DNA of 32,000 bases from Trichodesmium erythraeum IMS101 (GTDB taxonomy: Bacteria; Cyanobacteriota; Cyanobacteriia; Cyanobacteriales; Microcoleaceae). The stretch spans positions 4,260,001 to 4,292,000 of the forward strand of contig NC_008312.1 in assembly GCF_000014265.1 (NCBI RefSeq), written 5' to 3'. The notes beneath the pieces are model-generated. The model was not told the DNA's origin and searched no databases. It worked only from the letters and a program-made list of their open reading frames with translations. Position numbers and translations under genes: made by a program. This document shows, in pieces, positions 13,670 to 31,026 of this stretch (within the stretch, counting starts at the first letter, position 1; each line of letters begins with the position of its first letter).

Positions 13670-14851
13670 TTAATCATGGCTATAGCGATAATCTGCAACT
13701 ATCATATCCCCTAGTCCTTCTGTCTTGGCAGTTGGTTCTTGAATTTCTTCATCATTCTCGATACTCCAACGACGAAGACTATGGAGCACATAAGTCTTAA
13801 GATCGTCTACAGTCACGAAACCCTTTTTCTCCCGGTCTGCATCACCGCTGAGTCCTTCTATTAGGTAGTGGGTGAAGACTCCAGAATTTTTCTCTGGTGA
13901 CTCTAGGGCTTTTTGCTGTGCTGTACTCGCGGCAATTAAGGCAAAACCTTCAGCTAATTCATAAGCATTTTGAATGAATTGGGGCTCGTCAATTCCTCGT
14001 CCGGTTTCGACTCCCATATGACAAGCATCCAATGTCAGTACTAAACGTCTTGCTTTGCTAGAATGCATGGATTTTTTTATGTCGGCTAGAGACAAACCTG
14101 TTTTTTCGATGGTTGGTAAACGGGTATCCCTGACTATGAGCATAGGTTGTTCATCGCGCCCAAGTTTACCGTGACAAGCAAAATACACCAGCAATAGGTC
14201 ATCTACATCGACCATATTGCATAGGTTAATTAATTCAGCTTCTATATTGTTGTGGATGGGGAAGCGGCGGCTATCAGATTCAAGATCATCATGTAAACAC
14301 ATGACTGTGTATCCAAGTTCTTTGAGTTTCTTTTCTAATTTTTGCACATCTTTTACACAGAATTTTAACTTGTGAACTCCTGGATCATTATAGCGGTTGA
14401 CTCCTACCAAAAAAGCCCAACGATTTTTTATGGGTTGACGTTTTTCTTCTTCGAGCTTTCTTTTTTTTGTGCCTCGAATTGTAGTTTCTGTCTTGGTTTC
14501 TGGTTTAAGGTTATCCAGAGTTGAGTTATCTGCAAAAGCATTTTCCAGTTCTATAATTAGATTGACTAGTTGTTGGTGACGTTGATCTTCTTCTTCGATT
14601 AAATCTTTTAAGAGACGTAACAGTAAGACAAGAGCATTTTCTTTGGTGTCACTGTGATATTTGTTATGTAAATAGCTAATTACTAAGTTTACTCTACTGG
14701 CCATACTGTTGGCTTGGGGTAAAAAACGCCAAGGTCTTAGTGGTTGATAAGTGGAAACAATAGACTGAAGGGCGCGATCGCTCTCAAATTGTTCACAGTC
14801 TAACAGAAATTGACGCAATTTTTGATATAGTTCAGGGGGAATGCCAGCCAT
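13670..14851 (-). CDS. Caspase-family (peptidase C14, orthocaspase/metacaspase-like) protease with N-terminal Death-like effector-associated adaptor domain (EAD-type)
   Basis: Intact His-Cys dyad: VYFACHGKLG (His codon 14170-14172) and LTLDACHMG (Cys codon 14011-14013). WAFLVGVNRYN is a typical p20 start. The N-terminal ~85 aa (14597-14851) are homologous to the C-terminus of the 500-aa protein and the N-terminus of the 372-aa protein. Confidence 0.85.
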   Translation of the reverse strand: MAGIPPELYQKLRQFLLDCEQFESDRALQSIVSTYQPLRPWRFLPQANSMASRVNLVISYLHNKYHSDTKENALVLLLRLLKDLIEEEDQRHQQLVNLIIELENAFADNSTLDNLKPETKTETTIRGTKKRKLEEEKRQPIKNRWAFLVGVNRYNDPGVHKLKFCVKDVQKLEKKLKELGYTVMCLHDDLESDSRRFPIHNNIEAELINLCNMVDVDDLLLVYFACHGKLGRDEQPMLIVRDTRLPTIEKTGLSLADIKKSMHSSKARRLVLTLDACHMGVETGRGIDEPQFIQNAYELAEGFALIAASTAQQKALESPEKNSGVFTHYLIEGLSGDADREKKGFVTVDDLKTYVLHSLRRWSIENDEEIQEPTAKTEGLGDMIVADYRYSHD

Positions 14852-15063
14852 ATTATAAGTCTATCAAGGAATTTTGCCTATAGGACTGCCGCTATTATCG
14901 GACAATTTAACGCTGAGATGAATTTCAACCAGCAAGTTAATTGAGCGATACGCGAAACATTTTTTTTTACGTTGTATATTTTATCAAATTCTGAGATAAT
15001 TTAACACTAGTAGTGATTATTTTAACTGAGTATAAACTTATATGAATATTAAAAAAAATAAGG

Positions 15064-15153
15064 GTTTAGTCTTAATATCTTTAGAGGGACTAAAGTCGAA
15101 CTACAAGCCGAATTAATCTATGTTGGGTTTTGTGGCTTCAACCCAACCTACAA
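15064..15153 (+). repeat. Dispersed ~85-nt element, copy A (AATATC(T/C)TTAGAGG(G/A)A(C/A)TAAAGTC...GCCGAATTAATC(T/C)ATGTTGGGTT-N10-AACCCAAC)
   Basis: Collinear with 23041-23124 and 24310-24390. The 3' part forms a hairpin: GTTGGGTT / AACCCAAC with a 10-nt loop. Confidence 0.7.
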
Positions 15154-15186
15154 CTACTATGAGTTGCTGACGGCCTATTTGCTATA

Positions 15187-15582
15187 TTATTTTGTTGAAA
15201 AAAAACTACCAATAATATCAATGCCTCTACTGATCAGGGTTTTCCCTTTTTTTGATAGTTCTGATTCTTTTGACTCGCTGCTCTCAATAACCAAGTTTTC
15301 GATTATCTCCTTGGTTTCCTTTCCTGTGAGAGGAGTAGCACGACCATTTGCAGCTCGAGGATCTGGAATGCTATTAATGCGGATATTAAGAAAAGCATCT
15401 CGAATTTGCGGATGTTCATTACACCAGAGGGCTATGGCATCAGAGATTTTTTCAACATTATCTGGAAGCTTTTGAAGCAACTGCCGCAAATTAGTGCGTT
15501 CTTTTTCTTTGAATAAATTAGGTTGTTTTTTTATTAGGTCGACAAACTTTATTATATTTTCTTCGTATTTAGATAATGACAT
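15187..15582 (-). CDS. Small helical hypothetical protein (131 aa) of the caspase/CHAT module
   Basis: ATG at 15582 preceded by AGGAGG 5 nt upstream (GTCAATAGGAGGAAAAATG). It has the same orientation as all neighbouring genes. No family recognised. Confidence 0.6.
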   Translation of the reverse strand: MSLSKYEENIIKFVDLIKKQPNLFKEKERTNLRQLLQKLPDNVEKISDAIALWCNEHPQIRDAFLNIRINSIPDPRAANGRATPLTGKETKEIIENLVIESSESKESELSKKGKTLISRGIDIIGSFFSTK

Positions 15583-15777
15583 TTTTCCTCCTATTGACTA
15601 ATAGTACAAAATACAACTCAGTAAAAGGGCGATTCAAAGGGCCGAGCGTTCTCTGACATTTTACAGCATATTTCAGATTTATCAGGTACCCCCAAACCGT
15701 CAATATACTGGTAATATATGATTTTTAGCATTTACCCTGTACATCATTCGCCCGAAATCTGCTGTGTCTATATTTTT

Positions 15778-17280
15778 TTATAAACAATACTTAAGCTTTT
15801 CTGCTAATTCAGATAAAGTTTGATTCCGAGTATCTGCTGGATCAATTGTACTACTAAGGGAGTTTACCAAAATAACCAGTACATTCTCATTGGTATCGCT
15901 ACGATACTTATTTACTAAAAAGCCAATCACTAGTCTGACTCGTTGGGCCGTATTTTTACCTTCTGGTAAGCTATTGGCCCAAGGAGAGAGCCGAGCCTGA
16001 CCTTTGAAAAAACTTTGTAGTTCTTGATTAGTTTCAAATTGGTCACACTCTAACAGAGCTTTATACAGTTGATGACGAAGTTCGTCAGTAATTCCTCGGG
16101 TCTTGTTGCCAGAAGGTGTCTGAGTAAGGTTTTCCTTTATTGCGGCTTTTAGATTTTGCAGGTGAGTACGCTTAGGACTCAGGAATTCCAGATCTGCTTG
16201 AATTTGACTTTGCAATTTTTTGCGGATGTAATTTAAAAAATCTTCCCACAAACTTAAGTCAGTATCGGGTAGCTCCCCTAGCTTTTCTAGTTTCATCCTA
16301 TAATTTTTTTCATTAGTAGCAATGGTATTTTTGTGGGCTTCCAATTCCTCTAAGTAGTCAGCATACTTAATATCTATATCCTGTAATTCTACAAGTAATG
16401 GTCTAAGTTGTTCTTGCCTATTTGGTGATCGGGAAATTTGACGGAAGCTTTTCTTGTGCTGTTCTATTTTGCTATACAGTTGTTTGAGCTGACCCTCGCA
16501 CCCGCGAGATTGATGATAGATATACTGTATCTTATGACGACACCACAAAAGAAGAAGTATTAACTCGGATGCCTTATCCATTTTCTTTTCCTCTGGATCC
16601 AGATTTTGGCATTTCAACCAAACTAGAATATGAAGTCGCTGACTAGGGTCTTTATGTCGGCTTTCATATTCAAAAATCGGGTTTCCCAGTAAATGACCTG
16701 TATTTATTAGCTCAGTTCTATTTGTTGTTGGCAGTAATTTAGCAACACAAGCATCTGCAAAATCTTGATGGTTTTCCTGTAATTCACTTGGTTGTCCAAA
16801 AAGTAATAGGGTTTGCCCTAGAGAAGCTTGAATTTGTGAGGGGAGTAGTAGGTATTGGGGATTAAGTTGAGCTAGTTGAGATAGGAAAAAAGTGCTTTGA
16901 GAATGTAGGGTGAAATCTATTGCATAAGTATCGTGTACTCGGTATGGACAGAGTAATCCTTGAAGTTGCCTATCACCAGACTTGGAGGTTATTTCAAAGT
17001 CTAATTTGGTTTGTTGATTAGGTAATAAAATTTCATATTCACTTTCTAGGTTATCTTCTGCTGCGGGAAAATACTGGTTATTTTGATAACTAATTAGTTG
17101 TTGTTGCAGATTTTGCAGTTCTGGAATATTCAGCTTATTTCCCAAATCTACTAACTGTTCCCACAACCGGGGTGCTTTTGAAGTAGGTTTTAATCCCTGG
17201 TTGATACTGTTGCGCAGATGGAAAGCATAGAGTACAAGACTGGGACTATGCAGTCCTATGGTCTGGGGTATTTCTTTCAT
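15778..17280 (-). CDS. Hypothetical protein: unknown ~270-aa N-domain, coiled coil, C-terminal EAD-type adaptor domain
   Basis: The C-terminal 105 aa (15781-16095) read GITDELRHQLYKALLECDQFETNQELQSFFKGQARLSPWANSLPEGKNTAQRVRLVIGFLVNKYRSDTNENVLVILVNSL. They align with the caspase N-terminus at roughly 40% identity by eye. The middle region is heptad-rich (KYADYLEELEAHKNTIATNEKNYRMKLEKL). Confidence 0.7.
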   Translation of the reverse strand: MKEIPQTIGLHSPSLVLYAFHLRNSINQGLKPTSKAPRLWEQLVDLGNKLNIPELQNLQQQLISYQNNQYFPAAEDNLESEYEILLPNQQTKLDFEITSKSGDRQLQGLLCPYRVHDTYAIDFTLHSQSTFFLSQLAQLNPQYLLLPSQIQASLGQTLLLFGQPSELQENHQDFADACVAKLLPTTNRTELINTGHLLGNPIFEYESRHKDPSQRLHILVWLKCQNLDPEEKKMDKASELILLLLWCRHKIQYIYHQSRGCEGQLKQLYSKIEQHKKSFRQISRSPNRQEQLRPLLVELQDIDIKYADYLEELEAHKNTIATNEKNYRMKLEKLGELPDTDLSLWEDFLNYIRKKLQSQIQADLEFLSPKRTHLQNLKAAIKENLTQTPSGNKTRGITDELRHQLYKALLECDQFETNQELQSFFKGQARLSPWANSLPEGKNTAQRVRLVIGFLVNKYRSDTNENVLVILVNSLSSTIDPADTRNQTLSELAEKLKYCL

Positions 17281-17464
17281 TATTTGGGCAGTTTGGACTG
17301 GTAATCTTAAGTATTTATTGTATTATAATTTTCCAGAAAAGAGGAGGTAGGTAGGAAGTTTACATCTAACCTCCCTAGGGAGTAGGGAAGTAATTGATGA
17401 TTTCTGTGGTATAATTGACTAGATTTTTTCTTATTGGAGATGTGTGATTGAAGTTTTTTCATTA

Positions 17465-20400
17465 TTAGCCGATCGCGCAAAACCCTGCCCAGTAGAATGG
17501 TGATTCAAAGGGCTGATACTTATCTGACATTTGATGCAAACGACAGGCTAGATTCATTTCCAGGGTTGGACTCAGGGGGATTTTATTTTCTAAAATCCAT
17601 TTTTCCAACTCTTTTTTGGTTAGGTCTCGCAGCCAAAGTTGAGCTTGGTTAAGAGCGATCGCTACATTAGTCTGCTCCTGGGAATTTAGCAAATTTTTAT
17701 ACAACTGAATCATCAAAAGGGCTGTGGAGAGGTCATTAACAGTCCAGAGACTACTAACCACACTTGGACTCCCTGCATAGAGAAAACCGCTGGGCAGACC
17801 AATATATTCATCCCCAAGGGATTTAAAATCGCTCAGGCCTGTTTCGCAGGCGGAGAGGCTGGTGAGGCGACATTGACGCAAGTCTAAGGCGAAAATATCC
17901 CCTAAAGTTAGGCATTTTTCCAAATTAATCCCATTTCCATCTGCAGTTTCCTGAGGAGTTGGAGTTGTACTCCCTGCCAACAGCAGAGCAGAATCAATAG
18001 GCGATTTAAAATTAAAATAACCGCGACAGGCAAAATGAGCCACGTTGGTTTCAGCCAGACGTTCCTGGGTGAGGGCAGTTTTGGTAGCTTGTTGTCGTTC
18101 TAAGACGTCATCGTTAGGATAAAAGTCAGCGCGAATAGTGGCAACTTCTGGCTCGGTAAAACTGAGGTCTTCTGTAGGGTTCGTGACACTGAAAAAATGT
18201 TTGAGTGAGGAACGGTTCCAGGTTTGACTCAGTTGCAGCAGTTGGAGGCTGGGAGCATAGCTGAGACTTCCAGGAAAGCGCTCCATGAGTAAATCTCCAT
18301 TGGCTAAAGGCATGGCATGGAGGGGAAATAGGTGTAGGAACCGATGGGGAATGAGGATGAGGCGGTCGCATTTCTTTCCTTGCTGGTAAAAAATCTCGCC
18401 GACCTGGGTGAGGAGGCCATCGATATCAAGAATCTCGGCCAACCTTTTGAGGTTGGAGGCTAAATGGTCTTGCCACTGTTTTTTGTCTTCTTGCAAATAT
18501 GCAGTCAAATAATCATCTCCCCAATTTACTAAGGCTTCAAGCGTTTTTTTGTCAGTTTGTTTGACTAGCAGACTGTTGGCGGTCAGAATAAAGGTGATAA
18601 TTTTATCCTTCGTAATATACCACTCAATTATGGTAGTGCTTTCATCAATTCGACTTTGGGTATCACTCCAAGAAATCGGCTCTACCCTCTGAGTCAGGCT
18701 GAAGCTGGAGTCTATAGGCTTGATCCGTTCAAGTGTCTCCTCTAGCTGTTGCCTTGATAGCTGCAATTCTTGTTGTAGCTGTTGCTGTGATGCCATGAGC
18801 GATCGCCGCTGGGGTTCTTCTGGTGGGCTTGTATTTCCAGATAGTCGCTCTAGAACTCCTTGTAACCGCCTTTCTAGTGATGGAATGGTGCTTCGTAGTC
18901 GATCTAGCTCGGCGATGATCTCTTGGGGAACATCGCCTTTAGGATAGATGTCGCGCTTGGCTAGAAGTTCGACTAGGTTGCGAGTTTTGCTGCGTTCGGC
19001 TGTTTTGAAGGCTTGATCCCATTGCTCTAAATTGATGTATGTTTGCACCAGATTTTGATAAACTGATATTGCTTCTGCTATAATCTCTTGGCGGCGTTTG
19101 TCGGTAGTTGCCCAACTGCGGCTGAGTTCCACTGCAGCTATGGCTTTTTCATAGTTGTCGGCTGCGAGTTGCCAGTTTTGGTTGTCGAAATATAGGTAGC
19201 CTAAGTTGTTGGTGGTTTGTAGATGGTCGATGGGGTTTGCTTCCAGGGTACGCACCAGCAAAGCTTGTTGGAATGCAGCAATGGCGACTTCAATATTTTC
19301 GGCTTTTTCTCCCCTTATTCTGTAAATGTAGGCAGCGCCGAGATTATTTTGAGTCATTGCCCAGTCCATGGGGAAGTCAGTTTGGGTGAGTACCTGTAAA
19401 GCTTGTTGGTATTCAGCAATGGCAGCTTCAATATTTTCGGCTTTGTCTCCCCTTATTCTGTAAATGTAGGCAGCGCCGAGATTATTTTGAGTTGTTGCCC
19501 AGTCCATGGGGAAGTCTGTTTGGGTGCGCACCAGCAAAGCTTGTTGGTATGCAGCAATGGCGGCTTCAATATTTTCGGCTTTGTCTCCCCTTATTCTGTA
19601 AATGTAGGCATTGCCGAGATTATTTTGAGTTCTTGCCCAGTCCATGGGTAAGTCAGTTTGGGTGTACACCAGCAAAGCTTGTTGGTATGCAGCAATGGCA
19701 GATTCAATATTTTCGGTTTTGTCTCCCCTTATTCTGTCACTGTAGGCAGCGCCGAGATGATTTTGAGTCATTGCCCAGTCGATGGGTAAGTCAGTTTGGG
19801 TGCGCACCAGCAAAGCTTGTTGGCATGCAGCAATGGCAGCTTCAATATTTTCGGCTTTGTCTCCCCTTATTCTGTAAATGTAGGCAACGCCGAGATTATT
19901 TTGAGTCATTGCCCAGTCGATGGGTAAGTCAGTTTGGGTGCGCACCAGCAAAGCTTGTTGGCATGCAGCAATGGCAGCTTCAATATTTTCGGCTTTGTCT
20001 CCCCTTATTCTGTAAATGTAGGCAACGCCGAGATTATTTTGAGTCATTGCCCAGTCCATGGGTAAGTCAGTTTGGGTGAACACCAGCAAAGCTTGTTGGC
20101 ATGCAGCAATAGCAGCTTCAATATTTTCGGCTTTGTCTCCCCTTATTCTTTCTCTGTAGGCATTGCCGAGATTGTTTTGAGTTCCTGCCCAGTTGATGGG
20201 GAAGTCAGTTTGGGTGTACACCAGCAAAGCTTGTTGGCATGCAGCAATGGCAGCTTCAATATTTTCGGCTTTGTCTCCCCTTATTCTGTAAATGTAGGCA
20301 ACGCCGAGATGATTTTGAGTTCCTGCCCAGTCCACGGGGAAGTCAGTTTGGGTGCGCACCAGCAAAGCTTGTTGGCATGCAGCAATGGCAGCTTCAATAT

Positions 20401-22600
20401 TTTCGGCTTTGTCTCCCCTTATTCTTTCACAGTAGGCAATGCCGAGATGATTTTGAGTCATTGCCCAGTCCATGGGGAAGTCAGTTTGGGTGCGCACCAG
20501 CAAAGCTTGTTGGAATGCAGCAATGGCGGCTTCAATATTTTCGGCTTTGTCTCCCCTTATTCTTTCTCTGTAGGCATTGCCGAGATTATTTTGAGTTCCT
20601 GCCCAGTCCATGGGGAAGTCTGTTTGGGTGCGTACCAGCAAAGCTTGTTGGAATGCAGCAATGGCGGCTTCAATATTTTCGGCTTTGTCTCCCCTTATTC
20701 TGTCACTGTAGGCAATGCCGAGATTATTTTGAGTTCCTGCCCAGTCCATGGGGAAGTCTGTTTGGGTGAACACCAGCAAAGCTTGTTGGCATGCAGCAAT
20801 AGCAGCTTCAATATTTTCGGCTTTGTCTCCCCTTATTCTGTTACTGTAGGCAAGGCCGAGATTATTTTGAGTTTTTGCCCAGTCGATGGGGAAGTCAGTT
20901 TGGCTGTGCACCAGCAAAGCTTGTTCGTATGCAGCAATGGCAGTTTCAATATTTTCGGCTTTGTCTCCCCTTATTCTGTCACTGTAGGCATTGCCGAGAT
21001 TATTTTGAGTCATTGCCCAGTCCATGGGGAAGTCAGTTTGGGTGCGCACCAGCAAAGCTTGTTGGTATGCAGCAATGGCGGCTTCAATATTTTCGGCTTT
21101 GTCTCCCCTTATTCTGTTACTGTAGGCAATGCCTAGATTATTTTGAGTTGCTGCCCAGTCGATGGGGAAGTCAGTTTGGGTGCGCACCAGCAAAGCTTGT
21201 TGGCATGCAGCAATGGCAGCTTCAATATTTTGGGCTTTGTCTCCCCTTATTCTGTCTCTGTAGGCAACGCCGAGATTATTTTGAGTCATTGCCCAAATTT
21301 CCCGGTGACTCTTAGAGGTAAAGACTTTTAGCACGACTTCATAACCTGCAATACTAATTTCCATGTTGTTTGCTTTGTTACCCAGAGGAAATTCCTGAAT
21401 GAGGCCACTGAAATAACCAATAGACATAGCCATATCTTCTGCTACATCCGCCTCCACTTCAGAAAATATAGCAGTTGCCCGGTGTCGCAATATATCAGCA
21501 CAGTTACCATCAAGCTTATCTAAGTTTTGTTCTAGGAGTGGGTAAACAACTTTCGAGTTACCTTTGCTTTGTCTGGTTGCCTGCAATACCTCTCCCAAAA
21601 ACTTCAAATAATTTTGTTTGTCTATATCAGTTTTAATAGTACTTTTTAGTTCTTCAATGTCATTATTTGATTTTTGATTAGCTAATTTAACAGTCTCAAG
21701 CAACATCTCGTTTATCAGAGTGGGGACTTTAGAGAGATCTACTCCTAGATTTTCCAGAACCCTTACAGCTACTCCTTCTCCTTCTCGAATTAAACCCAAA
21801 AGTAAATGCTCTGTCCCAATATAATTATGTCCTAATTGCTGTGCTTCCTCCAAAGAGAATTCTAAAACTGTTTTAGCTCTAGGAGCAAATGGAATTTCTG
21901 CTTCTACATCTCCCGAACCACGGCCAATTATTTTTTCCACTTCAATCCGAGCATCCTTTAGGTTTACGCCCATATATTTTAGGACTTTGGCCGCTACCCC
22001 TGTTCCTTCTCCAATTAAACCCAGAAGGATTTGTTCTGTCTCTACAAAGTCATGTCCCAAGCGACGGGCCTCATCCTGGGCCAACATGATCGCTTTGATT
22101 GGTTTTTCGGTGAAGCGATCAAACATACTTTTAGACCTCTGACGAATATCCACCTCTACCTCATCAGTCTCAAGCAACATCTCGTTTATCAGAGTGGGGA
22201 CTTTAGAGAGATCTACTCCTAGATTTTCCAGAACCCTTACAGCTACTCCTTCTCCTTCTCGAATTAAACCCAAAAGTAAATGCTCTGTCCCAATATAATT
22301 ATGTCCTAATTGCTGTGCTTCCTCCGAAGAGAATTCTAAAACTGTTTTAGCTCTAGGAGCAAATGGAATTTCTGCTTCTACATCTCCTGAACCACGGCCA
22401 ATTATTTTTTCCACTTCAATCCGAGCATCCTTTAGGCTTACGCCCATAGATTTTAGGACTTTGGCTGCTACCCCTGTTCCTTCTCCAATTAAACCCAGAA
22501 GGATTTGTTCTGTATCTACAAAGTTATGTCCCAAACGACCAGCCTCATGCTGGGCCAACATTATCGCTTTGATTGGTTTTTCGGTGAAGCGTTCAAACAT
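17465..22600 (-). CDS. Giant 1711-aa protein: 2 x ClpC-type Clp_N domain, lead-in domain, ~15 x 46-aa TPR-like repeats, linker, C-terminal CHAT (caspase-like) domain with His-to-Arg at the catalytic His position
   Basis: N-terminus [50 protein letters not shown]... is the ClpC/ClpB N-domain signature and occurs twice. The repeat unit is [46 protein letters not shown]. CHAT motifs are [10 protein letters not shown] (expected HxxxHG) and [10 protein letters not shown], then [19 protein letters not shown] and [10 protein letters not shown]. Confidence 0.9.
19240..21300 (-). repeat. Intragenic array of ~15 near-identical 138-bp (46-codon) TPR-like repeats
   Basis: RIRG(D/E)K counted 15 times in the translation. 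The period matches the 138 bp measured directly in the homologous array of the neighbouring gene (CCATGG at 24792, 24930, 25068). Confidence 0.9.
21692..22600 (-). repeat. Tandem 474-bp duplication encoding the Clp_N module (copy 1 22166-22600, copy 2 21692-22126, 39-bp linker)
   Basis: AGTCTCAAGCAACATCTCG... starts at 21692 and again at 22166. The 145-aa copies differ at 8 residues (E3D, H18D, G21R, N26D, D29E, S51Y, S55N, S92L). The promoter-distal ~230 nt differ at only 2 nt by eye. Confidence 0.9.
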
Positions 22601-22671
22601 ATTTTCAGACTTTCGTTAGGGTTTCTAGCAAATATAACTACTATGATTTCGCTTAAAACGACATAATTCAG

Positions 22672-23124: not shown

Positions 23125-23176
23125 GACTGACTAAAACCTATAAATTAGGGGATAGCCAGACAAGGACTATGGCATC

Positions 23177-23285: not shown

Positions 23286-23290
23286 GCTTC

Positions 23291-23569: not shown

Positions 23570-24199
23570 ATGGTTAAAACAATACCAGCTAGTCAAATTG
23601 ACCTATATTCTTTAGAAGAAAATTTTGGTTTAAAACGGGCATACGAACCCACTTTTTTCCCGGAATGGCAAGAAAATTTACCAGAATTGACGGAATTGGA
23701 AAAACAAGAATTAGTGCAGCTTAAAGCGGATTATTTGCGTCTTTCTAAACGTCCCATGTTAGAACCTCTGGTAAAAATGGTGGTATTATCACCTTTATTG
23801 AGGGCAGCAGGTTTTTATCGGGAACCCTTTTTTCTCTCCGCTGAAAAACAGATAAAAATTACTTCCGAAGATGGGGGAGCGATCGTTACAGGTAAAATTG
23901 ATATATTGGTTTATACCCCTCAATTTTGGGTATTAGTAATTGAGGCGAAACGGGTTGAATATTCATTACAAGTAGGTATTCCTCAAATATTGGCTTATAT
24001 GTTAGACTCTCCAGAAATCGAACAATCTGCTTTTGGATTTGTGACAAATGGTAGTGAGTTTAGATTTGTTAAACTACTTAAAAGAGATACTATCCAATAT
24101 GGATTATCTCGTTTATTTTCCATAGATAGTGGGGAAGATTTATATACTGTTGTGAGTATTTTTAAGAGCCTCGCTCAATTCGTGATTCAGCAAAATTAA
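23570..24199 (+). CDS. PD-(D/E)XK-type (HsdR-N-like) putative nuclease-fold protein, paralogue of 8906..9508
   Basis: GKIDILVY...WVLVIEAKRVEYSLQVGIPQILAYM gives a D...E-x-K...Q arrangement. It is the only plus-strand gene inside the island and sits between the two repeat-array genes. Confidence 0.55.
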   Translation: MVKTIPASQIDLYSLEENFGLKRAYEPTFFPEWQENLPELTELEKQELVQLKADYLRLSKRPMLEPLVKMVVLSPLLRAAGFYREPFFLSAEKQIKITSEDGGAIVTGKIDILVYTPQFWVLVIEAKRVEYSLQVGIPQILAYMLDSPEIEQSAFGFVTNGSEFRFVKLLKRDTIQYGLSRLFSIDSGEDLYTVVSIFKSLAQFVIQQN

Positions 24200-24309
24200 T
24201 GGCGCTTATATTATGTTTTAAGAATCTAGAGTATTTATGAAAAAACTTAGAAAAAATTGGGGTAGTCCTGCATATATTAGTAGCTTTGTTGTCTGAAAGT
24301 AGCGATCGG

Positions 24310-24390
24310 CAATATCCTTAGAGGAACTAAAGTCCAACTACGAGCCGAATTAATCTATGTTGGGTTTCGTTGCCTCAACCTAGTCTACAA
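24310..24390 (+). repeat. Dispersed ~85-nt element, copy C
   Basis: CAATATCCTTAGAGGAACTAAAGTCCAACTACGAGCCGAATTAATCTATGTTGGGTTTCGTTGCCTCAACCTAGTCTACAA. Confidence 0.7.
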
Positions 24391-24495
24391 TCTTGAACAA
24401 GAGTCAAATAAGATCTTCAAAATTACTATTTATTAAATTAAGTAGAGTGAGCAAAGATTGATCAACCCTACAAAACTATTATCTCAACAATTGAT

Positions 24496-27400
24496 TCAAG
24501 GATTTAATACTTCTTTTACACCTTCAATAAGGAACTGAGCAACAGGATGATCAATCATTTTTTCTAAAGCTGCTAAACCTCCTGCTTTTAATCCTCGGAT
24601 AATTCGATATTTTAACTGAGGATTTTTATCAACTTCATCCATAGCTTTAGCACTTAAAACTCTATAACTATCGTTAGGATAATCTTCTGAAAGTTGATTG
24701 AGTAGATTTTTAATATCTTTAGCTGCTTGTGCTAGGTCTTGATTAATTTTTCTGTAGGCATTGCCGAGATTATTTTGAATTGTTGCCCATTCCATGGGGA
24801 AGTCAGTTTGGGTGTACACCAGCAAAGCTTGTTCGTATGCAGCAATGGCGGCTTCAATATTTTCCGCTTTGTCTCCCCTTATTCTGTTTCTGTAGGCATT
24901 GCCGAGATTATTTTGAATTGTTGCCCATTCCATGGGGAAGTCAGTTTGGGTGTACACCAGCAAAGCTTGTTCGTATGCAGCAATGGCAGCTTCAATATTT
25001 TCGGCTTTGTCTCCCCTTATTCTGTAAATGTAGGCAGCGCCGAGATTATTTTGAGTTGTTGCCCAGTCCATGGGGAAGTCTGTTTGGGTGCGCACCAGCA
25101 AAGCTTGTTGGTATGCAGCAATGGCAGCTTCAATATTTTCGGCTTTGTCTCCCCTTATTCTGTTACTGTAGGCATTGCCGAGATTATTTTGAATTGTTGC
25201 CCATTCCATGGGGAAGTCAGTTTGGGTGTACACCAGCAAAGCTTGTTGGTATGCAGCAATGGCAGCTTCAATATTTTCGGCTTTGTCTCCCCTTATTCTG
25301 TCACTGTAGGCATTGCCGAGATTATTTTGAGTTGTTGCCCAGTCCATGGGGAAGTCTGTTTGGGTGCGCACCAGCAAAGCTTGTTGGTATGCAGCAATGG
25401 CAGCTTCAATATTTTCGGCTTTGTCTCCCCTTATTCTGTCACTGTAGGCAATGCCGAGATTATATTGAGTTCCTGCCCAGTCCATGGGGAAGTCTGTTTG
25501 GGTGCGCACCAGCAAAGCTTGTTGGTATGCAGCAATGGCAGCTTCAATATTTTCGGCTTTGTCTCCCCTTATTCTGTCACTGTAGGCATTGCCGAGATTA
25601 TTTTGAGTTGTTGCCCAGTCCATGGGGAAGTCAGTTTGGGTGTACACCAGCAAAGCTTGTTGGAATGCAGCAATGGCAGCTTCAATATTTTCGGCTTTGT
25701 CTCCCCTTATTCTGTCACTATAGGCATTGCCGAGATTATTTTGAGTTCCGGCCCAGTCGATGGGGAAGTCAGTTTGGGTGCTTACCTGCAAAGCTCGTTT
25801 GTATGCAGCAATGGCGGCTTCAATATTTTCGGCTTTGTCTCCCCTTATTCTGTCTCTGTAGGCATTGCCGAGATTATTTTGAGTCATTGCCCAGTTGATG
25901 GGGAAGTCAGTTTGGGTGCGCACCAGCAAAGCTTGTTGGTATGCAGCAATGGCAGCTTCAATATTTTCGGCTTTGTCTCCCCTTATTCTGTTACTGTAGG
26001 CATTGCCGAGATTATTTTGAGTCATTGCCCAGTTGATGGGGAAGTCAGTTTGGGTGTACACCAGCAAAGCTTGTTGGTATGCAGCAATGGCGGCTTCAAT
26101 ATTTTCGGCTTTGTCTCCCCTTATTCTGTTTCTGTAGGCAATGCCGAGATTATTTTGAGTATTTGCCCAGTCCATGGGGAAGTCAGTTTGGGTGTACACC
26201 AGCAAAGCTTGTTGGTATGCAGCAATGGCAGCTTCAATATTTTCGGCTTTGTCTCCCCTTATTCTGTCACTGTAGGCAGCGCCGAGATTATTTTGAGTCA
26301 TTGCCCAGTCCATGGGGAAGTCAGTTTGGGTGTACACCAGCAAAGCTTGTTGGTATGCAGCAATGGCAGCTTCAATATTTTGGGCTTTGTCTCCCCTTAT
26401 TCTGTCTCTGTGGGCATTGCCGAGATTATTTTGAGTCATTGCCCAGTCCATGGGGAAGTCAGTTTGGGTGTACACCAGCAAAGCTTGTTCGTATGCAGCA
26501 ATGGCAACTTCAATATTTTCGGCTTTGTCTCCCCTTATTCTCTCACTGTACCCATTGCCGAGGCTATTTTGAGTTGCTGCCCATTCAAAGGGGAAGTCAG
26601 TTTGGGTAAGCACCATCAAAGCTTGTTGGCATGCAGCAATAGCCGATTCAATATTCTGGGCTTTGTCTCCTCTTATTCTGTTACTGTAGGCAATGCCGAG
26701 ATGATTTTGAATAATTCCCCACTCTTTAGGAAACTCTTCTCGTCGAAAAATTTGACAAGCAATCTGATATCCAGTAATAGCAATTTCTAAGTTTATCGCT
26801 ATATTTCCCAATGTAAAATTGCCTAATAAATTGCTAAATCTAGTAAGAGATGAACCAATTCTATGTAATTCAACTGGTTCCGTATTTAACAGTATATTAG
26901 TTGACCATTCTTGTAATAACCCAATTAAATCTTCATTTAACCTCTCTAGATTTGCTTCCAAAAATGGATAAATTTTCCATTGAGGATTATCATCATTATC
27001 AGAAACAATATTTAGTAACTCTTCGAGGAAAGACAACTCAACAGAAATTAGAGGAATTTCATCAGGAATTGACAAACTAACTCCAGCAATTTTAACTTGA
27101 CGTTCCCACCTAGAAAGCTGAGAGAATTGTTTTGTTGCACCCTCCAAATCTCCACTCGTAAAAGACACCATTCCACGGGCGTAGGTAATCAGTGGTGGTT
27201 CAAATTCCGCTAAAGCAGTTGGAAAACTTTCTATAAATAACCCAAATCTAAACAACTCCTTCCAGTTTTTCTGCTTCAATCTCTCTTCAATAGCCAGTGC
27301 CAGTTTATGATTAAGCTGATTAGGCTGACTACAAGCAAGGGACATCCAATACTCAGCCGTTCCTAAGTCTCTCCTCCTCAAATCATCACCATCAAGTTGC

Positions 27401-27747
27401 TGTTTCACATAGTTACTGTAGAAATCTGCTAGTTCTTTTAACCGAGGCTTATCAAAACGCTTATCTTCCTTCAACTCTTGCAACAACAAATTTCGGACAT
27501 TTACATCCATTTCATAAAGCTCATAGCCTACCTCACGGCACAAGCGAGATAAAAGTATGCGAGCAACTGCCGTCCAAGGAGCTTGGGGGACAAAGCGAAG
27601 CCAAATTTGGTAGAGCAAATCAGGAGTAAGTGTCTGTGGAAACGCTGCATGACAAGCTAAATCAAGATGTGTACCGTCGAATTGTTGGGCAAATCCTACC
27701 ACCCTCTCAACAGCTATTTCCGAATCTATTGCTTTAGTTGAATTCAT
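24496..27747 (-). CDS. 1083-aa vWA-MoxR-associated protein: ~230-aa helical N-domain, lead-in domain, ~14.5 x 46-aa TPR-like repeats, ~85-aa helical C-terminal tail
   Basis: The ATG at 27747 overlaps the vWA stop (ATGA). The repeats use the same consensus as the CHAT protein, and RIRGDK was counted 14 times plus one truncated unit. The lead-in (FLEELL...YPFLEANLERL...FTLGNIAINLEIAITGYQ) is homologous to the CHAT protein's (FLGEVL...[11 protein letters not shown]...[18 protein letters not shown]). Confidence 0.85.
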   Translation of the reverse strand: MNSTKAIDSEIAVERVVGFAQQFDGTHLDLACHAAFPQTLTPDLLYQIWLRFVPQAPWTAVARILLSRLCREVGYELYEMDVNVRNLLLQELKEDKRFDKPRLKELADFYSNYVKQQLDGDDLRRRDLGTAEYWMSLACSQPNQLNHKLALAIEERLKQKNWKELFRFGLFIESFPTALAEFEPPLITYARGMVSFTSGDLEGATKQFSQLSRWERQVKIAGVSLSIPDEIPLISVELSFLEELLNIVSDNDDNPQWKIYPFLEANLERLNEDLIGLLQEWSTNILLNTEPVELHRIGSSLTRFSNLLGNFTLGNIAINLEIAITGYQIACQIFRREEFPKEWGIIQNHLGIAYSNRIRGDKAQNIESAIAACQQALMVLTQTDFPFEWAATQNSLGNGYSERIRGDKAENIEVAIAAYEQALLVYTQTDFPMDWAMTQNNLGNAHRDRIRGDKAQNIEAAIAAYQQALLVYTQTDFPMDWAMTQNNLGAAYSDRIRGDKAENIEAAIAAYQQALLVYTQTDFPMDWANTQNNLGIAYRNRIRGDKAENIEAAIAAYQQALLVYTQTDFPINWAMTQNNLGNAYSNRIRGDKAENIEAAIAAYQQALLVRTQTDFPINWAMTQNNLGNAYRDRIRGDKAENIEAAIAAYKRALQVSTQTDFPIDWAGTQNNLGNAYSDRIRGDKAENIEAAIAAFQQALLVYTQTDFPMDWATTQNNLGNAYSDRIRGDKAENIEAAIAAYQQALLVRTQTDFPMDWAGTQYNLGIAYSDRIRGDKAENIEAAIAAYQQALLVRTQTDFPMDWATTQNNLGNAYSDRIRGDKAENIEAAIAAYQQALLVYTQTDFPMEWATIQNNLGNAYSNRIRGDKAENIEAAIAAYQQALLVRTQTDFPMDWATTQNNLGAAYIYRIRGDKAENIEAAIAAYEQALLVYTQTDFPMEWATIQNNLGNAYRNRIRGDKAENIEAAIAAYEQALLVYTQTDFPMEWATIQNNLGNAYRKINQDLAQAAKDIKNLLNQLSEDYPNDSYRVLSAKAMDEVDKNPQLKYRIIRGLKAGGLAALEKMIDHPVAQFLIEGVKEVLNP
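24745..26745 (-). repeat. Intragenic array of ~14.5 near-identical 138-bp repeats, cross-identical to the array at 19240-21300
   Basis: Exact 138-bp period (CCATGG at 24792 / 24930 / 25068). Units are above 90% identical to each other and to those of the CHAT gene by eye. Confidence 0.9.
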
Positions 27748-28979
27748 AATGATTTTTGCCGGCTCAACTCATAAAAATCTTTCCCATACACATAGCGACC
27801 ACGCAAAGCATTGATAGCAGCATTAAATCCTTGAGGACTCATCTCAAACATTGGCACAAACCGAGCAATTTCCCCAGCAGTCGTGCCTTGCCAACTATCA
27901 TTAGGCATAGGATTTAGCCAAGCATAATAACGGACTGACTGCCGAAGTTGTTCAATAAACCTCTGGGTGCACTCAATTCGCTCTGGGTTATAATTACTCC
28001 TGGCAGCTCCAGCATCACTGACCATAAGTACTCCTGCTCTTTCATCGATAGCTCCTAAAATATCTGTAATTAGTTGAGCTTTGAGGCGAGTTGGGTCACT
28101 ATAAAAATATATTTCAGGATAATTATAAAAATAATAAACACTCGCCTGCTCAATATTTCCACCCCGTCGAGCTTTATCTATTAATTGACGGGATAAATGA
28201 TGAAAAGGAATCATTGAGCCACCTTGATCAACCAGTAACACAAGTTTAACTCGATTTACATAATTTGGCATCAGCACCGCTTCAATTAAGATGCATTGCT
28301 GACAAATCTTGGCTACCGTAGCTGGTACATTCAACTTGTCCGATATACCTTGGGGGACTGAACGACTTAAAAAACGCCAACTCTGCTTAATCTGCCGAGG
28401 GGTCACTGGCAGGTATTGAGCAGCTAGATCTTGGTATTCAGAAATCATTTCATTAGACCTATTATAATGTCGGATAGCTTGAATGACCAGTTCTGGTTCA
28501 TCTATTTCTAGGGGAATATCAGTCAATGGACTCGGTTTTGACACAGGTATTTCTGGCTCTTTTAATGGAGCTTTTTCCTCAAGTTGCTCAGATATGTTGC
28601 GAACAGGCGTCGCTGTAGATGGTAAAGTCGAAGAGTCCATAACTTCCTCAGACTCCTTTGATACAGGTCTAGTTGAAGCGCTAGTTGGGGAGGGATTCGG
28701 TGTATCTTCGACAGGTTGTGGTAATTCAGCAGAAGAAGGAGCATTGGTTATTGCCCGACCTAGAAGTTGATGTAACAGGCGGGCCTCCTGTTCAGATTTT
28801 GTCCACAAAGTACAACATAGTCGTTCTAAAGAGTCGCGATCGCCTATACCAAACCCACCTTGCAATGCCCTCAGCACTAACATATAGTCTTCAACTCCCA
28901 AAGGCAAGCCATATTGGCGCAAACTGTAAAAAAGAGACAGTAAGACCTTCAACAAAGGTACTTCTTCAACGACATTCAT
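27744..28979 (-). CDS. von Willebrand factor A (vWA, CoxE-like) domain protein with Pro/Ser-rich linker
   Basis: The ATG at 28979 overlaps the MoxR stop (ATGA), with AGGAGG 7 nt upstream. LVLLVDQGGSM is a MIDAS-position motif (DxGxS where DxSxS is canonical). VLMVSDAGAA is a typical later vWA strand. The N-terminal helical region resembles CoxE-type proteins. Confidence 0.75.
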   Translation of the reverse strand: MNVVEEVPLLKVLLSLFYSLRQYGLPLGVEDYMLVLRALQGGFGIGDRDSLERLCCTLWTKSEQEARLLHQLLGRAITNAPSSAELPQPVEDTPNPSPTSASTRPVSKESEEVMDSSTLPSTATPVRNISEQLEEKAPLKEPEIPVSKPSPLTDIPLEIDEPELVIQAIRHYNRSNEMISEYQDLAAQYLPVTPRQIKQSWRFLSRSVPQGISDKLNVPATVAKICQQCILIEAVLMPNYVNRVKLVLLVDQGGSMIPFHHLSRQLIDKARRGGNIEQASVYYFYNYPEIYFYSDPTRLKAQLITDILGAIDERAGVLMVSDAGAARSNYNPERIECTQRFIEQLRQSVRYYAWLNPMPNDSWQGTTAGEIARFVPMFEMSPQGFNAAINALRGRYVYGKDFYELSRQKSL

Positions 28980-29923
28980 TTTCTTTCCTCCTGGGAGGAG
29001 TATAAATATTCTCTATAATCATGCCAATACTTAAGTAGAACTTGAGCAAAAGGCAGTTCACCGTTTAGCTTCCCTAATACCTCCTCTTCAGGATATTGTC
29101 GTAGAATGGTAAACCAATCAATTAACTCACTGGTACTTACCTTTTTACCAGTTTTGCCACTATCTCTCTCCATCTGTTTTCTCAGTTCACCAAAGCGCCA
29201 TACTGCTTTTCTCATAACCTCCGGTGCTGCCTCTGGAAAATGAGCCTTAACAATGTTAACCAATTCAGCTTCATTAGGAAATTCGATATAATAAAAAAGA
29301 CAACGACGTAAGAAAGCATCTGGTAAATCTTTTTCTTCATTACTGGTAATAAATATAATTGGTGGTTCTTTAGCCTTAATTTCGTATTCTTTCTCTACTT
29401 CTTTTTCTTGACTTTTTATCTCTGGTATGGTAAAGCGCTTTTCATCTAGCACCTGAAGCAAATCATTAGGGAAGTCAATATCAGCCTTATCAATTTCATC
29501 AATTAGAATTACAGTACGCTGGGAATTTTCAAAAGCACGACCCAGTGGCCCTAGTTTAATATAATTCCAAAGATTATCAACCCTAGAGAGTTTCTGTCCA
29601 TCAAGACGGGCTAGTTGGGCATCGTGGAGGCGAGCGATCGCATCGTAAGTGTAACAACCATCTTTAGCCTTGCTTGTAGACTGAATATACCAAGGTTCGT
29701 AGGGTAAACCTAGCTCATAAGCCACAGCCCTCGCCAAGCGAGTTTTACCACTACCAGGTTCCCCCTTCAACAATAAAGGACGTTTTTGTAAAAAAATAGT
29801 CAGATTAACTGCCTCAACCAACTCTGGTGAAGGTATATAAGGTTCAAGTCCATGCAGTTCGCACTCCTGTTCCGAAGGTTGTCTTTCCCCCGTATAGAGG
29901 CGAGGAATCACTGAATCAACCAT
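28976..29923 (-). CDS. MoxR-type AAA+ ATPase
   Basis: Walker A LLKGEPGSGKTRLA, Walker B VILIDEIDKAD, and sensor/Arg region ITSNEEKDLPDAFLRRC. The ORF track starts at a TTG (29944). I prefer the ATG at 29923 because AGGAGGG lies 9 nt upstream (29932-29938). Either start overlaps the upstream gene's end. Confidence 0.85.
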   Translation of the reverse strand: MVDSVIPRLYTGERQPSEQECELHGLEPYIPSPELVEAVNLTIFLQKRPLLLKGEPGSGKTRLARAVAYELGLPYEPWYIQSTSKAKDGCYTYDAIARLHDAQLARLDGQKLSRVDNLWNYIKLGPLGRAFENSQRTVILIDEIDKADIDFPNDLLQVLDEKRFTIPEIKSQEKEVEKEYEIKAKEPPIIFITSNEEKDLPDAFLRRCLFYYIEFPNEAELVNIVKAHFPEAAPEVMRKAVWRFGELRKQMERDSGKTGKKVSTSELIDWFTILRQYPEEEVLGKLNGELPFAQVLLKYWHDYREYLYSSQEERK

Positions 29924-31026
29924 TTGGCCAACCCTCCTTCCCAACTACGGCCACAGTAATCACAAATTTGTCTATAAACCAGCTCAGGAACACCTCCTTG
30001 AGATTTTTGGAGTAATTCATCAACAGATATACTCTCAGGTACCATATTTTTTCGTACAACACTATTTTTCCATGTTTCTAAATGATAGTATGAAAATTTA
30101 CCAGTTTCAGGTAAGCATAAAGGGTCCTTAGGATATTTTGAATTTTCAAACTTCCAAGTTAGGGAAACTCCTGATTTACAAACTATTCCTTTATCATCAA
30201 CCAAAAACATTAATAAATAAGTTTTTTGGTGAGTAGCTTTTTCGACTATTGGCCACCAAAATTTTTTAATTAAATCTGGTAAAAAACCTGTAAAAGTACG
30301 GTGGAGTCCTGAAAAAATAAAAATTAAATTTTGAGTTTCTAAACATTGTAAAATTGCATTAATAACCTGTTCGTCTGTAGTATTTGAACCAAAAAATTCA
30401 GAAGAAATTTTTCCCCATAATTCCCTAATATCGCTCATCCGAGTTAAATCCCTTTGGATTTTACGTCCATTACTTAATTCTGGCAATTTACGTAATAGCC
30501 TAGTAAGCAGAGCTTTCTGACCACAATTTTCATCATACCCATCAATCAGAAAAGCTCCCGTTCGTTTGTGTGATTTTTGGCATTTTATAGCTTTTCTAAC
30601 AGTATCTTCTTGTTCTGAAAAATCAATATCAATTATTGATTGAAACAACTGGCTGTTATTATTATTGCCTAAAGATGTTGATGAATTTAAGGGTAAAGAT
30701 GGATTTTCTAATTCTTTTTTAACCTTGTTCCATAAATTATTAATTCTATGCCACATCTCGTCTTCTTCATAGTATTCATCTCTCAAATTTTCCAAAAAAA
30801 TTATAAATATACACCCATATTCTTGATGTCTTGTTTTTATTAAAATATCCAGATTTAACATCACTAATAACCCTGGTGTATTAGCTTCTTTCAGTTTATT
30901 TGATACCACATTTAATTCCTTAATTGCCCCGCAAAAACTACGCAAGTATTGAAAATTGGTAAAAATGTCGCATTCTAAAAGAACATCCCTGCATTCTTTA
31001 TAAAGTTCTCCTGGTAGCCCACTCAT
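29908..31026 (-). CDS. EAD-type adaptor domain fused to a degenerate (probably inactive) P-loop NTPase-like domain
   Basis: N-terminus MSGLPGELYKECRDVLLECDIFTNFQYLRSF shares the ELY-x5-LL-[DE]-C-[DE]-x-F...L-x-S signature with the caspase N-terminus. The Walker-A position reads FLIDGYDENCGQKALL (no GK[ST]). The Walker-B position reads LIFIFSGLH (no Asp). It is the first gene of the MoxR-vWA operon. Confidence 0.65.
   Translation of the reverse strand: MSGLPGELYKECRDVLLECDIFTNFQYLRSFCGAIKELNVVSNKLKEANTPGLLVMLNLDILIKTRHQEYGCIFIIFLENLRDEYYEEDEMWHRINNLWNKVKKELENPSLPLNSSTSLGNNNNSQLFQSIIDIDFSEQEDTVRKAIKCQKSHKRTGAFLIDGYDENCGQKALLTRLLRKLPELSNGRKIQRDLTRMSDIRELWGKISSEFFGSNTTDEQVINAILQCLETQNLIFIFSGLHRTFTGFLPDLIKKFWWPIVEKATHQKTYLLMFLVDDKGIVCKSGVSLTWKFENSKYPKDPLCLPETGKFSYYHLETWKNSVVRKNMVPESISVDELLQKSQGGVPELVYRQICDYCGRSWEGGLAKWLIQ

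Follow-up and report, generated by a model that had tools for sequence, protein, structure and literature searches.

In a window of 32,000 nucleotides from the filamentous cyanobacterium Trichodesmium erythraeum IMS101 (NC_008312.1, forward-strand positions 4,260,001 to 4,292,000; coordinates below count from the first letter of the window), we find a minus-strand island of long open reading frames (ORFs) between 11.9 and 31.0 kb in which one small domain, bDLD1, occurs on a caspase, on a 500-amino acid (aa) protein of a family here termed X, and on an inactive STAND (iSTAND) protein heading an operon that also encodes a MoxR-type ATPase and a vWA protein (Table 1). The island is very probably a member of the iSTAND/bDLD1 class, and we consider it probable that the genes from Tery_2760 to Tery_2768 (13.67–31.03 kb) constitute an iSTAND-class MoxR–vWA ternary conflict system with its parts coupled by the three bDLD1 domains. 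Recruitment of one bDLD1 by another is, as read from sequence, a reasonably probable mechanism of that coupling, and we place lower confidence in the specific route from the iSTAND protein to the caspase, as against a route from the X protein to the caspase.

A shared adaptor domain on three proteins

The original prediction, read from translations of this DNA, held that the first residues of the caspase, the last residues of the 500-aa protein and the first residues of the 372-aa protein are homologous, and the coordinates and translations that it gave for the three ORFs (393, 500 and 372 aa, all on the minus strand) are correct. All pairwise BLASTP comparisons are significant. Residues 1–100 of the caspase align with the C terminus of the 500-aa protein at 45% identity over 97 aa (E 2e-26) and with the N terminus of the 372-aa protein at 29% over 99 aa (E 5e-10), and the latter two align with each other at 30% over 80 aa (E 1e-7). 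Homology among the three segments is, as judged by these alignments, far above chance; the earlier estimate of roughly 40% identity between the caspase and 500-aa copies was slightly low, and the 372-aa copy is the more divergent one, as proposed. Against the Pfam model PF20689 (bDLD1, 'Bacterial Death-like domain 1'), which has a gathering score of 25 bits, the full-length caspase, 500-aa and 372-aa proteins score 39.7, 33.4 and 44.8 bits and the isolated segments 43.1, 37.2 and 47.9 bits. This bears out the suggestion that the module is one of the effector-associated domains (EADs) of Kaur et al. 2020, where bDLD1 is EAD3 (PMC7159879). A hidden Markov model (HMM) built on these domains and their relatives detects three copies, and no more, in the six frames of the 32 kb; this is the number originally counted, and the copies lie at the N terminus of the iSTAND protein, the N terminus of the caspase and the C terminus of the X protein. 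The arrangement characteristic of EADs, with one copy on a terminus of the core and others on termini of nearby effector or signaling proteins, is seen here and in seven related loci.

bDLD1 is a small all-alpha non-catalytic domain of ~100 aa with near-invariant residues that include Cys19, Phe22, Trp41 and Asn72 (caspase numbering). An exhaustive profile search of the family gives 1444 clusters (50% identity) at E ≤ 1e-3 and 756 at E ≤ 1e-10. Among 80 representatives of this census, bDLD1 stands at the N or C terminus beside AAA_16, a STAND-type ATPase (10 of 80), caspase (9), EAD7 (8), trypsin (6), CHAT (5), Metallophos, AAA_35 or Roc-COR GTPase (4 each), and PNP, FGE-sulfatase, nSTAND1 or EAD2 (3 each), and such terminal placement on many effectors and NTPase cores is the spread that would be expected of a coupling adaptor. 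In two proteins of the family (P0121 and P0122) an N-terminal caspase precedes four bDLD1 stretches in tandem, so that one protease bears an array of adaptors.

AlphaFold2 (AF2) models the first 100 residues of the caspase as a confident six-helix bundle (pLDDT 89.6, from a 17-sequence alignment), and the same six-helix unit appears at residues 399–499 in the model of the 500-aa protein. The bundle of five to six helices foreseen for this domain is thus supported by the models, and the Death-type relation foreseen along with it stays below significance in Foldseek (TM-score 0.39–0.48, E > 1). The Death domain of NF-kB p100 (2d96; TM-score 0.39, E 6.9) has the equal-highest TMq among the 50 PDB matches listed, and no bacterial CARD entries are among these 50. 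HMMER does not connect the domain to the Death, CARD, DED or PYD families, with Pfam at E ≤ 10 returning bDLD1 and a weak EAD8 match only, and the bDLD1 profile searched against all PDB sequences returns noise (E ≥ 0.27) and no Death-fold protein. Kaur et al. tied bDLD1 to a Death-like fold through profile–profile search (PMC7159879). We therefore use 'Death-like' as the published name of the family; the predicted structure is compatible with the Death fold and is not a significant match to it.

Table 1. Positions, strand and domain content of the principal features (window coordinates)
Feature	Position	Strand	Content
497-aa protein	11969..13462	-	N-terminal signal peptide or transmembrane segment, long coiled coil, C-terminal transmembrane segments; directly downstream of the caspase
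Tery_2760 caspase, 393 aa	13670..14851	-	bDLD1 aa 2-96 (DNA 14558-14851); Peptidase_C14 orthocaspase aa 144-373
Tery_2761, 131 aa	15187..15582	-	no known domain; recurrent companion of X and CHAT proteins
Tery_2762 X protein, 500 aa	15778..17280	-	X domain; C-terminal bDLD1 aa 396-499 (DNA 15781-16098)
TPR-CHAT protein, 1711 aa	17465..22600	-	four Clp_N (a duplicated pair), ~15 TPR units, CHAT
PD-(D/E)xK / HSDR_N-like nuclease-fold protein, 209 aa	23570..24199	+	HSDR_N 29.8 bits (Pfam); PADLOC PD_DExK E 2.1e-8
N-domain-TPR protein, 1083 aa	24496..27747	-	conserved N-terminal ~330 aa; ~14 tandem 46-aa TPR_10 units
CoxE-like vWA protein, 411 aa	27744..28979	-	4-nt ATGA-type overlaps with both neighbors
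MoxR-type AAA+ ATPase	28976..29944	-	overlaps the end of the iSTAND gene
Tery_2768 iSTAND protein (ABG51951), 372 aa	29908..31026	-	bDLD1 aa 3-95 (DNA 30745-31026); inactive STAND aa 134-276
bDLD1 copies (HMM scan)	14558-14851, 15805-16098, 30745-31026	-	
Tandem TPR arrays	19246-21295 and 24752-26710	-	46-aa units, period 138 bp, in two genes

Components of the operon and of the caspase block

Kaur et al. described iSTAND ternary systems that combine an inactive STAND as third component with MoxR, a CoxE-type vWA protein and variable effectors, and a subset of their iSTAND proteins has the N-terminal helical domain named bDLD1/EAD3 (PMC7159879). EADs were proposed there, as a computational prediction, to bridge effectors and core components via homotypic contacts (PMC7159879), and the same logic of prediction returns in Kaur et al. 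eLife 2021 (PMC8195603). The iSTAND module of Tery_2768 scores 67.6 bits (Pfam, cutoff 24); no GK[ST] P-loop is present at any point of the sequence, and LIFIFSGL, without an acidic residue, stands at the Walker B position. By these motifs Tery_2768 is an inactive STAND, the core third component encoded by the first gene of the operon, which corrects its earlier description as an NTPase-like subunit. The ATPase of the system is, by the same kind of reading, MoxR, supplied in trans to the P-loop-less STAND: its Walker A (GEPGSGKT, aa 61–68) and Walker B (VILIDE, aa 145–150) motifs are both intact, AAA_5 scores 47.6 bits (Pfam), its closest relatives of known structure are the AAA modules of midasin, and it is 64–70% identical to the MoxR proteins of the Nostocales loci described below.

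The vWA protein carries DQGGS at residues 251–255, a variant of the canonical DxSxS metal ion-dependent adhesion site motif, and this sequence is identical in the Nostocales orthologues checked and is therefore a conserved feature rather than decay. Orthologues with 58% identity occupy the same position in related loci, and the NCBIfam MadC-VWA model matches at E 1.4e-3. The place of its gene after MoxR and the 4-nt overlap of the two genes agree with a CoxE-type co-chaperone. We tried the MADS system as an identity for these genes and rejected it, with MadB and MadC similarity far under cutoff. The 1083-aa protein (TPR_10 158.6 bits, Pfam) holds the effector or sensor position after vWA; from residue 1 its N terminus is 57–60% identical to the product of the post-vWA gene in five related loci (L013, L016, L018, L020 and L023), and its N-terminal ~330 aa are a candidate vWA-L linker, a domain for which the libraries searched contain no model. 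The overlaps among the iSTAND, MoxR, vWA and N-domain-TPR genes are of 4 nt or of 16–37 nt, with 4 nt between the last two, so these genes form one translationally coupled operon headed by the 372-aa protein, as originally proposed. A promoter and terminator scan gave no signal above shuffled expectation and was not used to define the operon.

Some 16 kb away, the caspase Tery_2760 (Peptidase_C14 61.5 bits, Pfam) retains an intact catalytic dyad, with His227 in ACHG and Cys277 in DACH. Orthocaspases are expected to be specific for Arg or Lys and not for Asp. The protein that shares its adaptor subtype, Tery_2762, had been described as an unknown coiled-coil protein; it proves to belong to a conserved X-bDLD1-trypsin family. 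Its AF2 model (pLDDT 88.9) consists of an alpha/beta domain (aa 9–222), three very long helices (aa 231–386) and the six-helix bDLD1, and the protein has no effector domain and no transmembrane (TM) helices. UniRef labels it 'Bacterial Death-like domain-containing protein'. The X family is cyanobacterial and apparently undescribed. A typical member of ~800 aa has an N-terminal X domain of ~390 aa, then bDLD1, then a C-terminal trypsin-like peptidase, less often replaced by Metallophos or PNP_UDP_1, and a family that normally bears a protease itself argues that Tery_2762 is not a bystander. More distant homologues (P0067–P0120) are without bDLD1 and end in two predicted TM helices, and their genes lie directly downstream of TPR-CHAT genes (loci L021 and L022), in L022 after a 131-like gene.

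Two candidate identities for the X domain were considered and rejected. The best Foldseek matches to the Tery_2762 model are weak (YwmB, E 5.6e-3; CorA cytosolic domains, E 0.04–0.6, TM-score ≤ 0.40), and with no TM helices in Tery_2762 and no GMN motif visible in the tail alignment of the two-TM homologues we do not assign it to CorA; the two-TM form appears CorA-like in architecture only (alpha/beta domain, long helices, two TM segments). EACC1 was prompted by a match of Tery_2760 to the NCBIfam model 'caspase, EACC1-associated type', which at 107.8 bits is under the cutoff of 140, and EACC1 is a single-TM domain.

The 131-aa protein Tery_2761 finds close relatives only in a homologue search. 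Genes for 131-like proteins adjoin X-bDLD1 in L014 and L017 and X-2TM in L022 (7651–8004), and come after CHAT in L013 and L020; in L016 (16856–21232) the homologue is fused to the C terminus of the post-vWA TPR-CHAT protein, at aa 1344–1451. TPR-CHAT, 131-like and X genes thus appear to form a conserved trio that can exist without iSTAND–MoxR–vWA. The TPR-CHAT gene precedes the X gene in every related locus. Its 1711-aa product here (Clp_N 232 bits, CHAT 154.6 bits, Pfam) has a CHAT domain at ~17465–18500 on the minus strand in which Arg1526 (CGC, 18023–18025) replaces the catalytic His and Cys1585 is retained in LSACETG. It reads HFACRGYF where seven of nine aligned homologues have HF[AS][CSG]H[GS], and both L007 and L008, which are independent assemblies, have the same CGC codon. 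In L013 and L016, too, the CHATs encoded after vWA lack dyad residues, and because dyad-less CHATs recur in this Nostocales position they look like conserved pseudo-proteases or scaffolds. With the CHAT His lost, Tery_2760 is the sole evidently active protease in the island. The N-terminal Clp_N region of the 1711-aa protein is unmatched by the aligned TPR-CHAT homologues of related loci; at 21691–22610 a 474-bp unit is repeated 1.9 times at 96% identity, duplicating the Clp_N pair into four Clp_N repeats.

The mechanism that we envisage begins with a trigger, most likely an invader molecule or else a stress signal, that would be recognized by the iSTAND protein, the hypervariable TPR arrays or both. 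The MoxR/vWA chaperone pair would spend ATP to remodel the complex or license an oligomer, setting an ATP-dependent threshold, and the iSTAND protein and the coiled-coil X protein would oligomerize and so cluster their bDLD1 domains. Clustered adaptors would then recruit the bDLD1-caspase by homotypic binding, induced proximity would switch the protease on, and cleavage of cellular or system proteins would lead to growth arrest or death of the infected or affected cell in the filament.

Gene order in related loci and competing explanations

We compared the island with a small sample of six informative non-Trichodesmium loci and one further locus (L014); pattern-based scans of genomes and metagenomes with the iSTAND alignment added five loci only. 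A Nostocales-type layout is found in Okeanomitos (L013), Nostoc (L016), Sphaerospermopsis (L017), a Nostoc metagenome-assembled genome (L018), Nostocales LEGE 12452 (L020) and a metagenome (L023). The shared order, on one strand, is TPR-CHAT, X-bDLD1-trypsin, a 363-aa gene, bDLD1-iSTAND, MoxR, vWA, N-domain-TPR(-CHAT) and a 131-like gene, and the encoded proteins are 43–70% identical to those of the window. All the iSTAND proteins of these six loci have an N-terminal bDLD1, and an X-bDLD1 homologue, usually fused to a trypsin-like protease, lies just upstream of bDLD1-iSTAND-MoxR-vWA in 6/6. The 363-aa gene between X-bDLD1-trypsin and iSTAND has no homologue in the window. In the Okeanomitos locus (CP150886) the called iSTAND gene (13655–14617, 320 aa) omits an in-frame upstream bDLD1 at 13493–13789, and its annotated start is probably too far downstream.

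The closest relative of Tery_2762 is P0002 of L014 (67% identity), which is also effector-less and is followed by a 131-like gene and then by a bDLD1-caspase 60% identical to Tery_2760. A bDLD1-NACHT NTPase stands in the place of iSTAND in this locus, with no MoxR–vWA within 10 kb, and each of the bDLD1-form X loci examined has a bDLD1-bearing (i)STAND core alongside. By this comparison the Trichodesmium layout is the split form, with X-bDLD1 and bDLD1-caspase in place of the fused X-bDLD1-trypsin. The split-versus-fused (Rosetta-stone) pattern implies that contact between two bDLD1 domains replaces the peptide bond, and is the best sequence-level argument, an indirect one, that two bDLD1 domains bind each other; the contrast with Nostocales is in effect a natural experiment that predicts which adaptor pair binds.

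A number of observations pull against a single system in which iSTAND drives the caspase. The caspase gene is 16 kb from the iSTAND gene, and an opposite-strand gene lies between them. bDLD1 copies cluster by protein class and not by genome: the caspase and X-protein copies are 43–45% identical to each other and 39–54% identical to X-type or caspase-type copies elsewhere, and the iSTAND copy shares 36–37% identity with other iSTAND copies and 29–30% with its same-genome partners. Because of this clustering the pairing of iSTAND with caspase is not specifically indicated. The window appears to hold two bDLD1 subtypes, an iSTAND–caspase contact would join paralogous subtypes, and, since the caspase and 500-aa adaptors are of one subtype, the direct partner of the caspase may be the 500-aa protein rather than the sensor operon. 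The wiring of sensor operon to caspase drawn in the original prediction is therefore supported in part, by gene order in all six loci and by the intact caspase dyad, and qualified by the closer kinship of the caspase adaptor to the 500-aa copy (43–45%) than to that of iSTAND (29%). To these points are added the vWA assignment, for which VWA_CoxE reaches E 3.7e-5 and 23.7 bits under a Pfam cutoff of 26.4 and PDB sequence searches gave no supporting match, and the CHAT domain of the 1711-aa protein, which does not have both the His and the Cys of an active CHAT protease. Foldseek of the bDLD1 model against the PDB returns nothing at E ≤ 0.001, and its best BFVD match, a poxvirus 'IFN-inducible protein' that is probably of pyrin type, is non-significant (TM-score 0.48, E 1.9). 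PADLOC gives no system-level match, only weak generic AAA matches for MoxR; it has no model for such a system, so an immune role is assigned by analogy only. Full-text literature searches found no experimental studies of bDLD1 or iSTAND systems, in line with the original statement that no such characterization was known.

We judge it rather unlikely that the window holds two independent neighbors, an autonomous module of TPR-CHAT, X-bDLD1, the 131-aa protein and bDLD1-caspase in which the X hub recruits the caspase, and a separate iSTAND operon that puts its own bDLD1 to its own use. Adaptor identities (45% between caspase and X protein versus 29–30% to the iSTAND copy) and the opposite-strand gene that parts the two blocks would fit such a division, as would L014, with X-bDLD1, a small protein and bDLD1-caspase and no MoxR–vWA nearby, and the existence of the TPR-CHAT/131-like/X-2TM trio in L021 and L022 without iSTAND–MoxR–vWA and without bDLD1 feeds it further. 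Yet X-bDLD1 is the immediate upstream same-strand neighbor of bDLD1-iSTAND in all six loci, a bDLD1-NACHT NTPase takes the position of iSTAND in L014, X-bDLD1 had a bDLD1-bearing (i)STAND core beside it in every bDLD1-form locus examined, and 131-like proteins also follow or are fused to the post-vWA CHAT, interleaving the two supposed modules. A different proposal takes bDLD1 not as a homotypic adaptor but as a shared regulatory module (for instance a tag by which a protease recognizes its targets, a pro-domain with autoinhibitory function or a domain that binds a ligand or second messenger) through which its carriers answer one signal in parallel. This is improbable given the position of bDLD1 at the very ends of NTPase cores and of many effectors that are unrelated to one another, the other EAD families that fill the same position in sister systems (PMC7159879), and the trypsin fusion versus caspase split, most simply explained by mutual bDLD1 binding; on its side are the near-invariant Cys19, Phe22, Trp41 and Asn72, which could make a ligand site, and the non-significant placement of the model in the Death fold by Foldseek.

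Decay, finally, would make the island a non-functional remnant in which the effector of X-bDLD1 was lost, CHAT inactivated, the layout rearranged and a foreign gene inserted, and this we consider very improbable. It would account for the His-to-Arg change in CHAT, for an X-bDLD1 without the protease domain that most homologues have, for the gene fragments and long AT-rich gaps in the left third of the window, and for the opposite-strand PD-(D/E)xK gene that interrupts the island; the Trichodesmium genome is known to be gene-poor and pseudogene-rich, with low coding density. All nine ORFs, however, are intact and long, including those of 1711 and 1083 aa that run across repeat arrays, and many Trichodesmium strains and metagenomes have the same or almost the same proteins, in clusters of 88–123 members. 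Catalytic motifs are intact in MoxR and the caspase, the pairing of an effector-less X-bDLD1 with a bDLD1-caspase recurs in L014, dyad-less CHATs in the Nostocales post-vWA position point to a conserved pseudo-protease, and Tery_2760 transcripts are reported to be regulated (PMC7947765).

The coupled iSTAND-class system thus remains the reading that we prefer, and it admits an elaboration that we regard as unlikely. The 500-aa protein could be an undescribed oligomerizing hub or effector family (alpha/beta domain plus three-helix stalk, CorA-like in architecture) that serves, with the 131-aa protein, as the dedicated partner or possibly the substrate of TPR-CHAT, its two-TM branch being membrane-disrupting and a second branch having exchanged the TM helices for a Death-like adaptor that recruits soluble proteases. 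The MoxR/vWA/iSTAND and TPR-(pseudo)CHAT arms would then converge through bDLD1 on one orthocaspase, in the manner of a death-inducing signaling complex. If such a two-armed complex exists, it would supply the activator, long looked for, that acts upstream of caspase-like programmed cell death in this bloom-forming diazotroph.

Known systems, repeat arrays and neighboring sequence

The architecture class was published in 2020 and 2021, and the system is therefore not categorically new. Like the system of Kaur et al., the island combines an N-terminal bDLD1 on an inactive STAND, MoxR, a probable CoxE-like vWA protein, a TPR array that may act as the 'superstructure' module of the effector slot and a second bDLD1 on a peptidase, in a host that is filamentous and multicellular; a habit of this kind is expected for hosts of these ternary systems, and the 2020 supplement lists IMS101 as a multicellular organism. 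It differs in that the peptidase copy of bDLD1 is on a caspase 16 kb away and a third copy is on an effector-less X-domain protein. The features that make it a variant are the caspase in place of trypsin, the split effector, the three adaptor copies and the rearranged layout; the X domain, the 131-aa partner and the His-less CHAT go unmentioned in the main text of PMC7159879 and PMC8195603.

The animal apoptosome and inflammasome (Apaf-1 or NLR proteins with CARD or PYD, and CARD-caspases) likewise unite a STAND platform with a six-helix adaptor that recurs on a protease of the caspase family, induced proximity being the presumed mode of activation. Here, in contrast, the P-loop is missing from the STAND and the use of ATP falls to MoxR/vWA, HMMER does not detect the adaptor as Death, CARD, PYD or DED nor does Foldseek do so significantly, and the protease is an orthocaspase. 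Closer to hand are the experimentally characterized bacterial CARD–NLR-like systems, type II gasdermin (Wein et al., PMC10312443) and Caulobacter LypABC (Banks et al. 2026, PMC13236601), whose protease-driven death or lysis requires an NLR-like ATPase together with a Death-fold-like adaptor that sits on a protease. They are likewise multi-gene bacterial sets of adaptor, protease and ATPase and set a precedent for CARD-like coupling; unlike the island, they have no MoxR–vWA pair, their NLR-like ATPase is active and their peptidases are of trypsin or subtilisin type. PADLOC models do not recognize the Trichodesmium proteins. Csx29 of the type III-E CRISPR effector Craspase shares with the 1711-aa protein a combination of TPR and CHAT (NCBIfam Csx29, E 2e-17, far below cutoff), and the invariable succession of TPR-CHAT and X genes is reminiscent of a protease–substrate pair; that the X protein is a substrate of TPR-CHAT is speculation, and the island differs from Craspase in having no CRISPR context, an Arg for the catalytic His and N-terminal Clp_N repeats.

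In T. erythraeum IMS101, caspase-like death of cells starved of iron and in high light has been reported, as summarized in PMC2853523, and no upstream activator of this caspase-linked death is known. The literature found on Tery_2760 itself comprises orthocaspase phylogenies and one expression figure only. The island ties this one IMS101 orthocaspase to a defined set of sensor and ATPase in a cultured, globally important nitrogen fixer, and MoxR–vWA–iSTAND systems with Death-like adaptors have been proposed as a prokaryotic forerunner of apoptosome and inflammasome wiring. If the adaptors bind and activate the caspase, the EAD principle would gain its first functional evidence, as would a cyanobacterial Death-like adaptor–caspase axis.

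The two TPR arrays comprise 14 and 13 in-register 46-aa units, with a mean DNA identity of 91.9% within an array and 91.5% between arrays (best between-array pair 99.3%). Unit variation is concentrated at positions 17, 24, 31, 35, 42, 45 and 46. These seven codons have dN 0.56 and dS 0.18 and the remaining codons dN 0.029 and dS 0.079, a contrast that is suggestive only because the variable positions were chosen circularly. The arrays suggest concerted evolution that homogenizes the units together with a diversifying recognition surface. In this they resemble the hypervariable repeat receptors of fungal and bacterial NLR type, with ~92% DNA identity and variation at about seven positions per unit in two arrays, and differ from them in that repeats and NTPase are on separate polypeptides and diversifying selection is suggested only. 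Such near-identical repeats explain why short-read assemblies break here. Long plus-strand ORFs, the largest of 683 aa, lie antisense to the arrays (19400–21320 and 24739–26790); they are themselves repetitive and are repeat shadows, not genes.

Between the two TPR genes, the opposite-strand 209-aa PD-(D/E)xK gene is without a counterpart in related loci; it is probably not a conserved member but an insertion by which an ancestral layout was split. At the other end of the island, the gene for the 497-aa protein lies on the same strand as the caspase gene and adjacent to it in all Trichodesmium contigs (L007–L012), matches no Pfam family, is without homologues in the loci from outside Trichodesmium, and could encode a lineage-specific membrane partner or target, its membership in the system being uncertain. 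Rfam and tRNA scans of the window returned no matches. Beyond the island, positions 1–11000 have a G+C content of 27–38%, low coding density and short or fragmentary ORFs, consistent with a gene-poor, pseudogene-rich Trichodesmium genome. They include a Ligase_CoA fragment (124–618) followed by a succinyl-CoA-ligase-alpha-like ORF (1308–2180), an HTH_3 ORF (2970–3311) followed by a short M78/IrrE-like fragment (3638–3880), a partial aldo/keto reductase (7522–8625), and DUF3768 and DUF4332 sequences.

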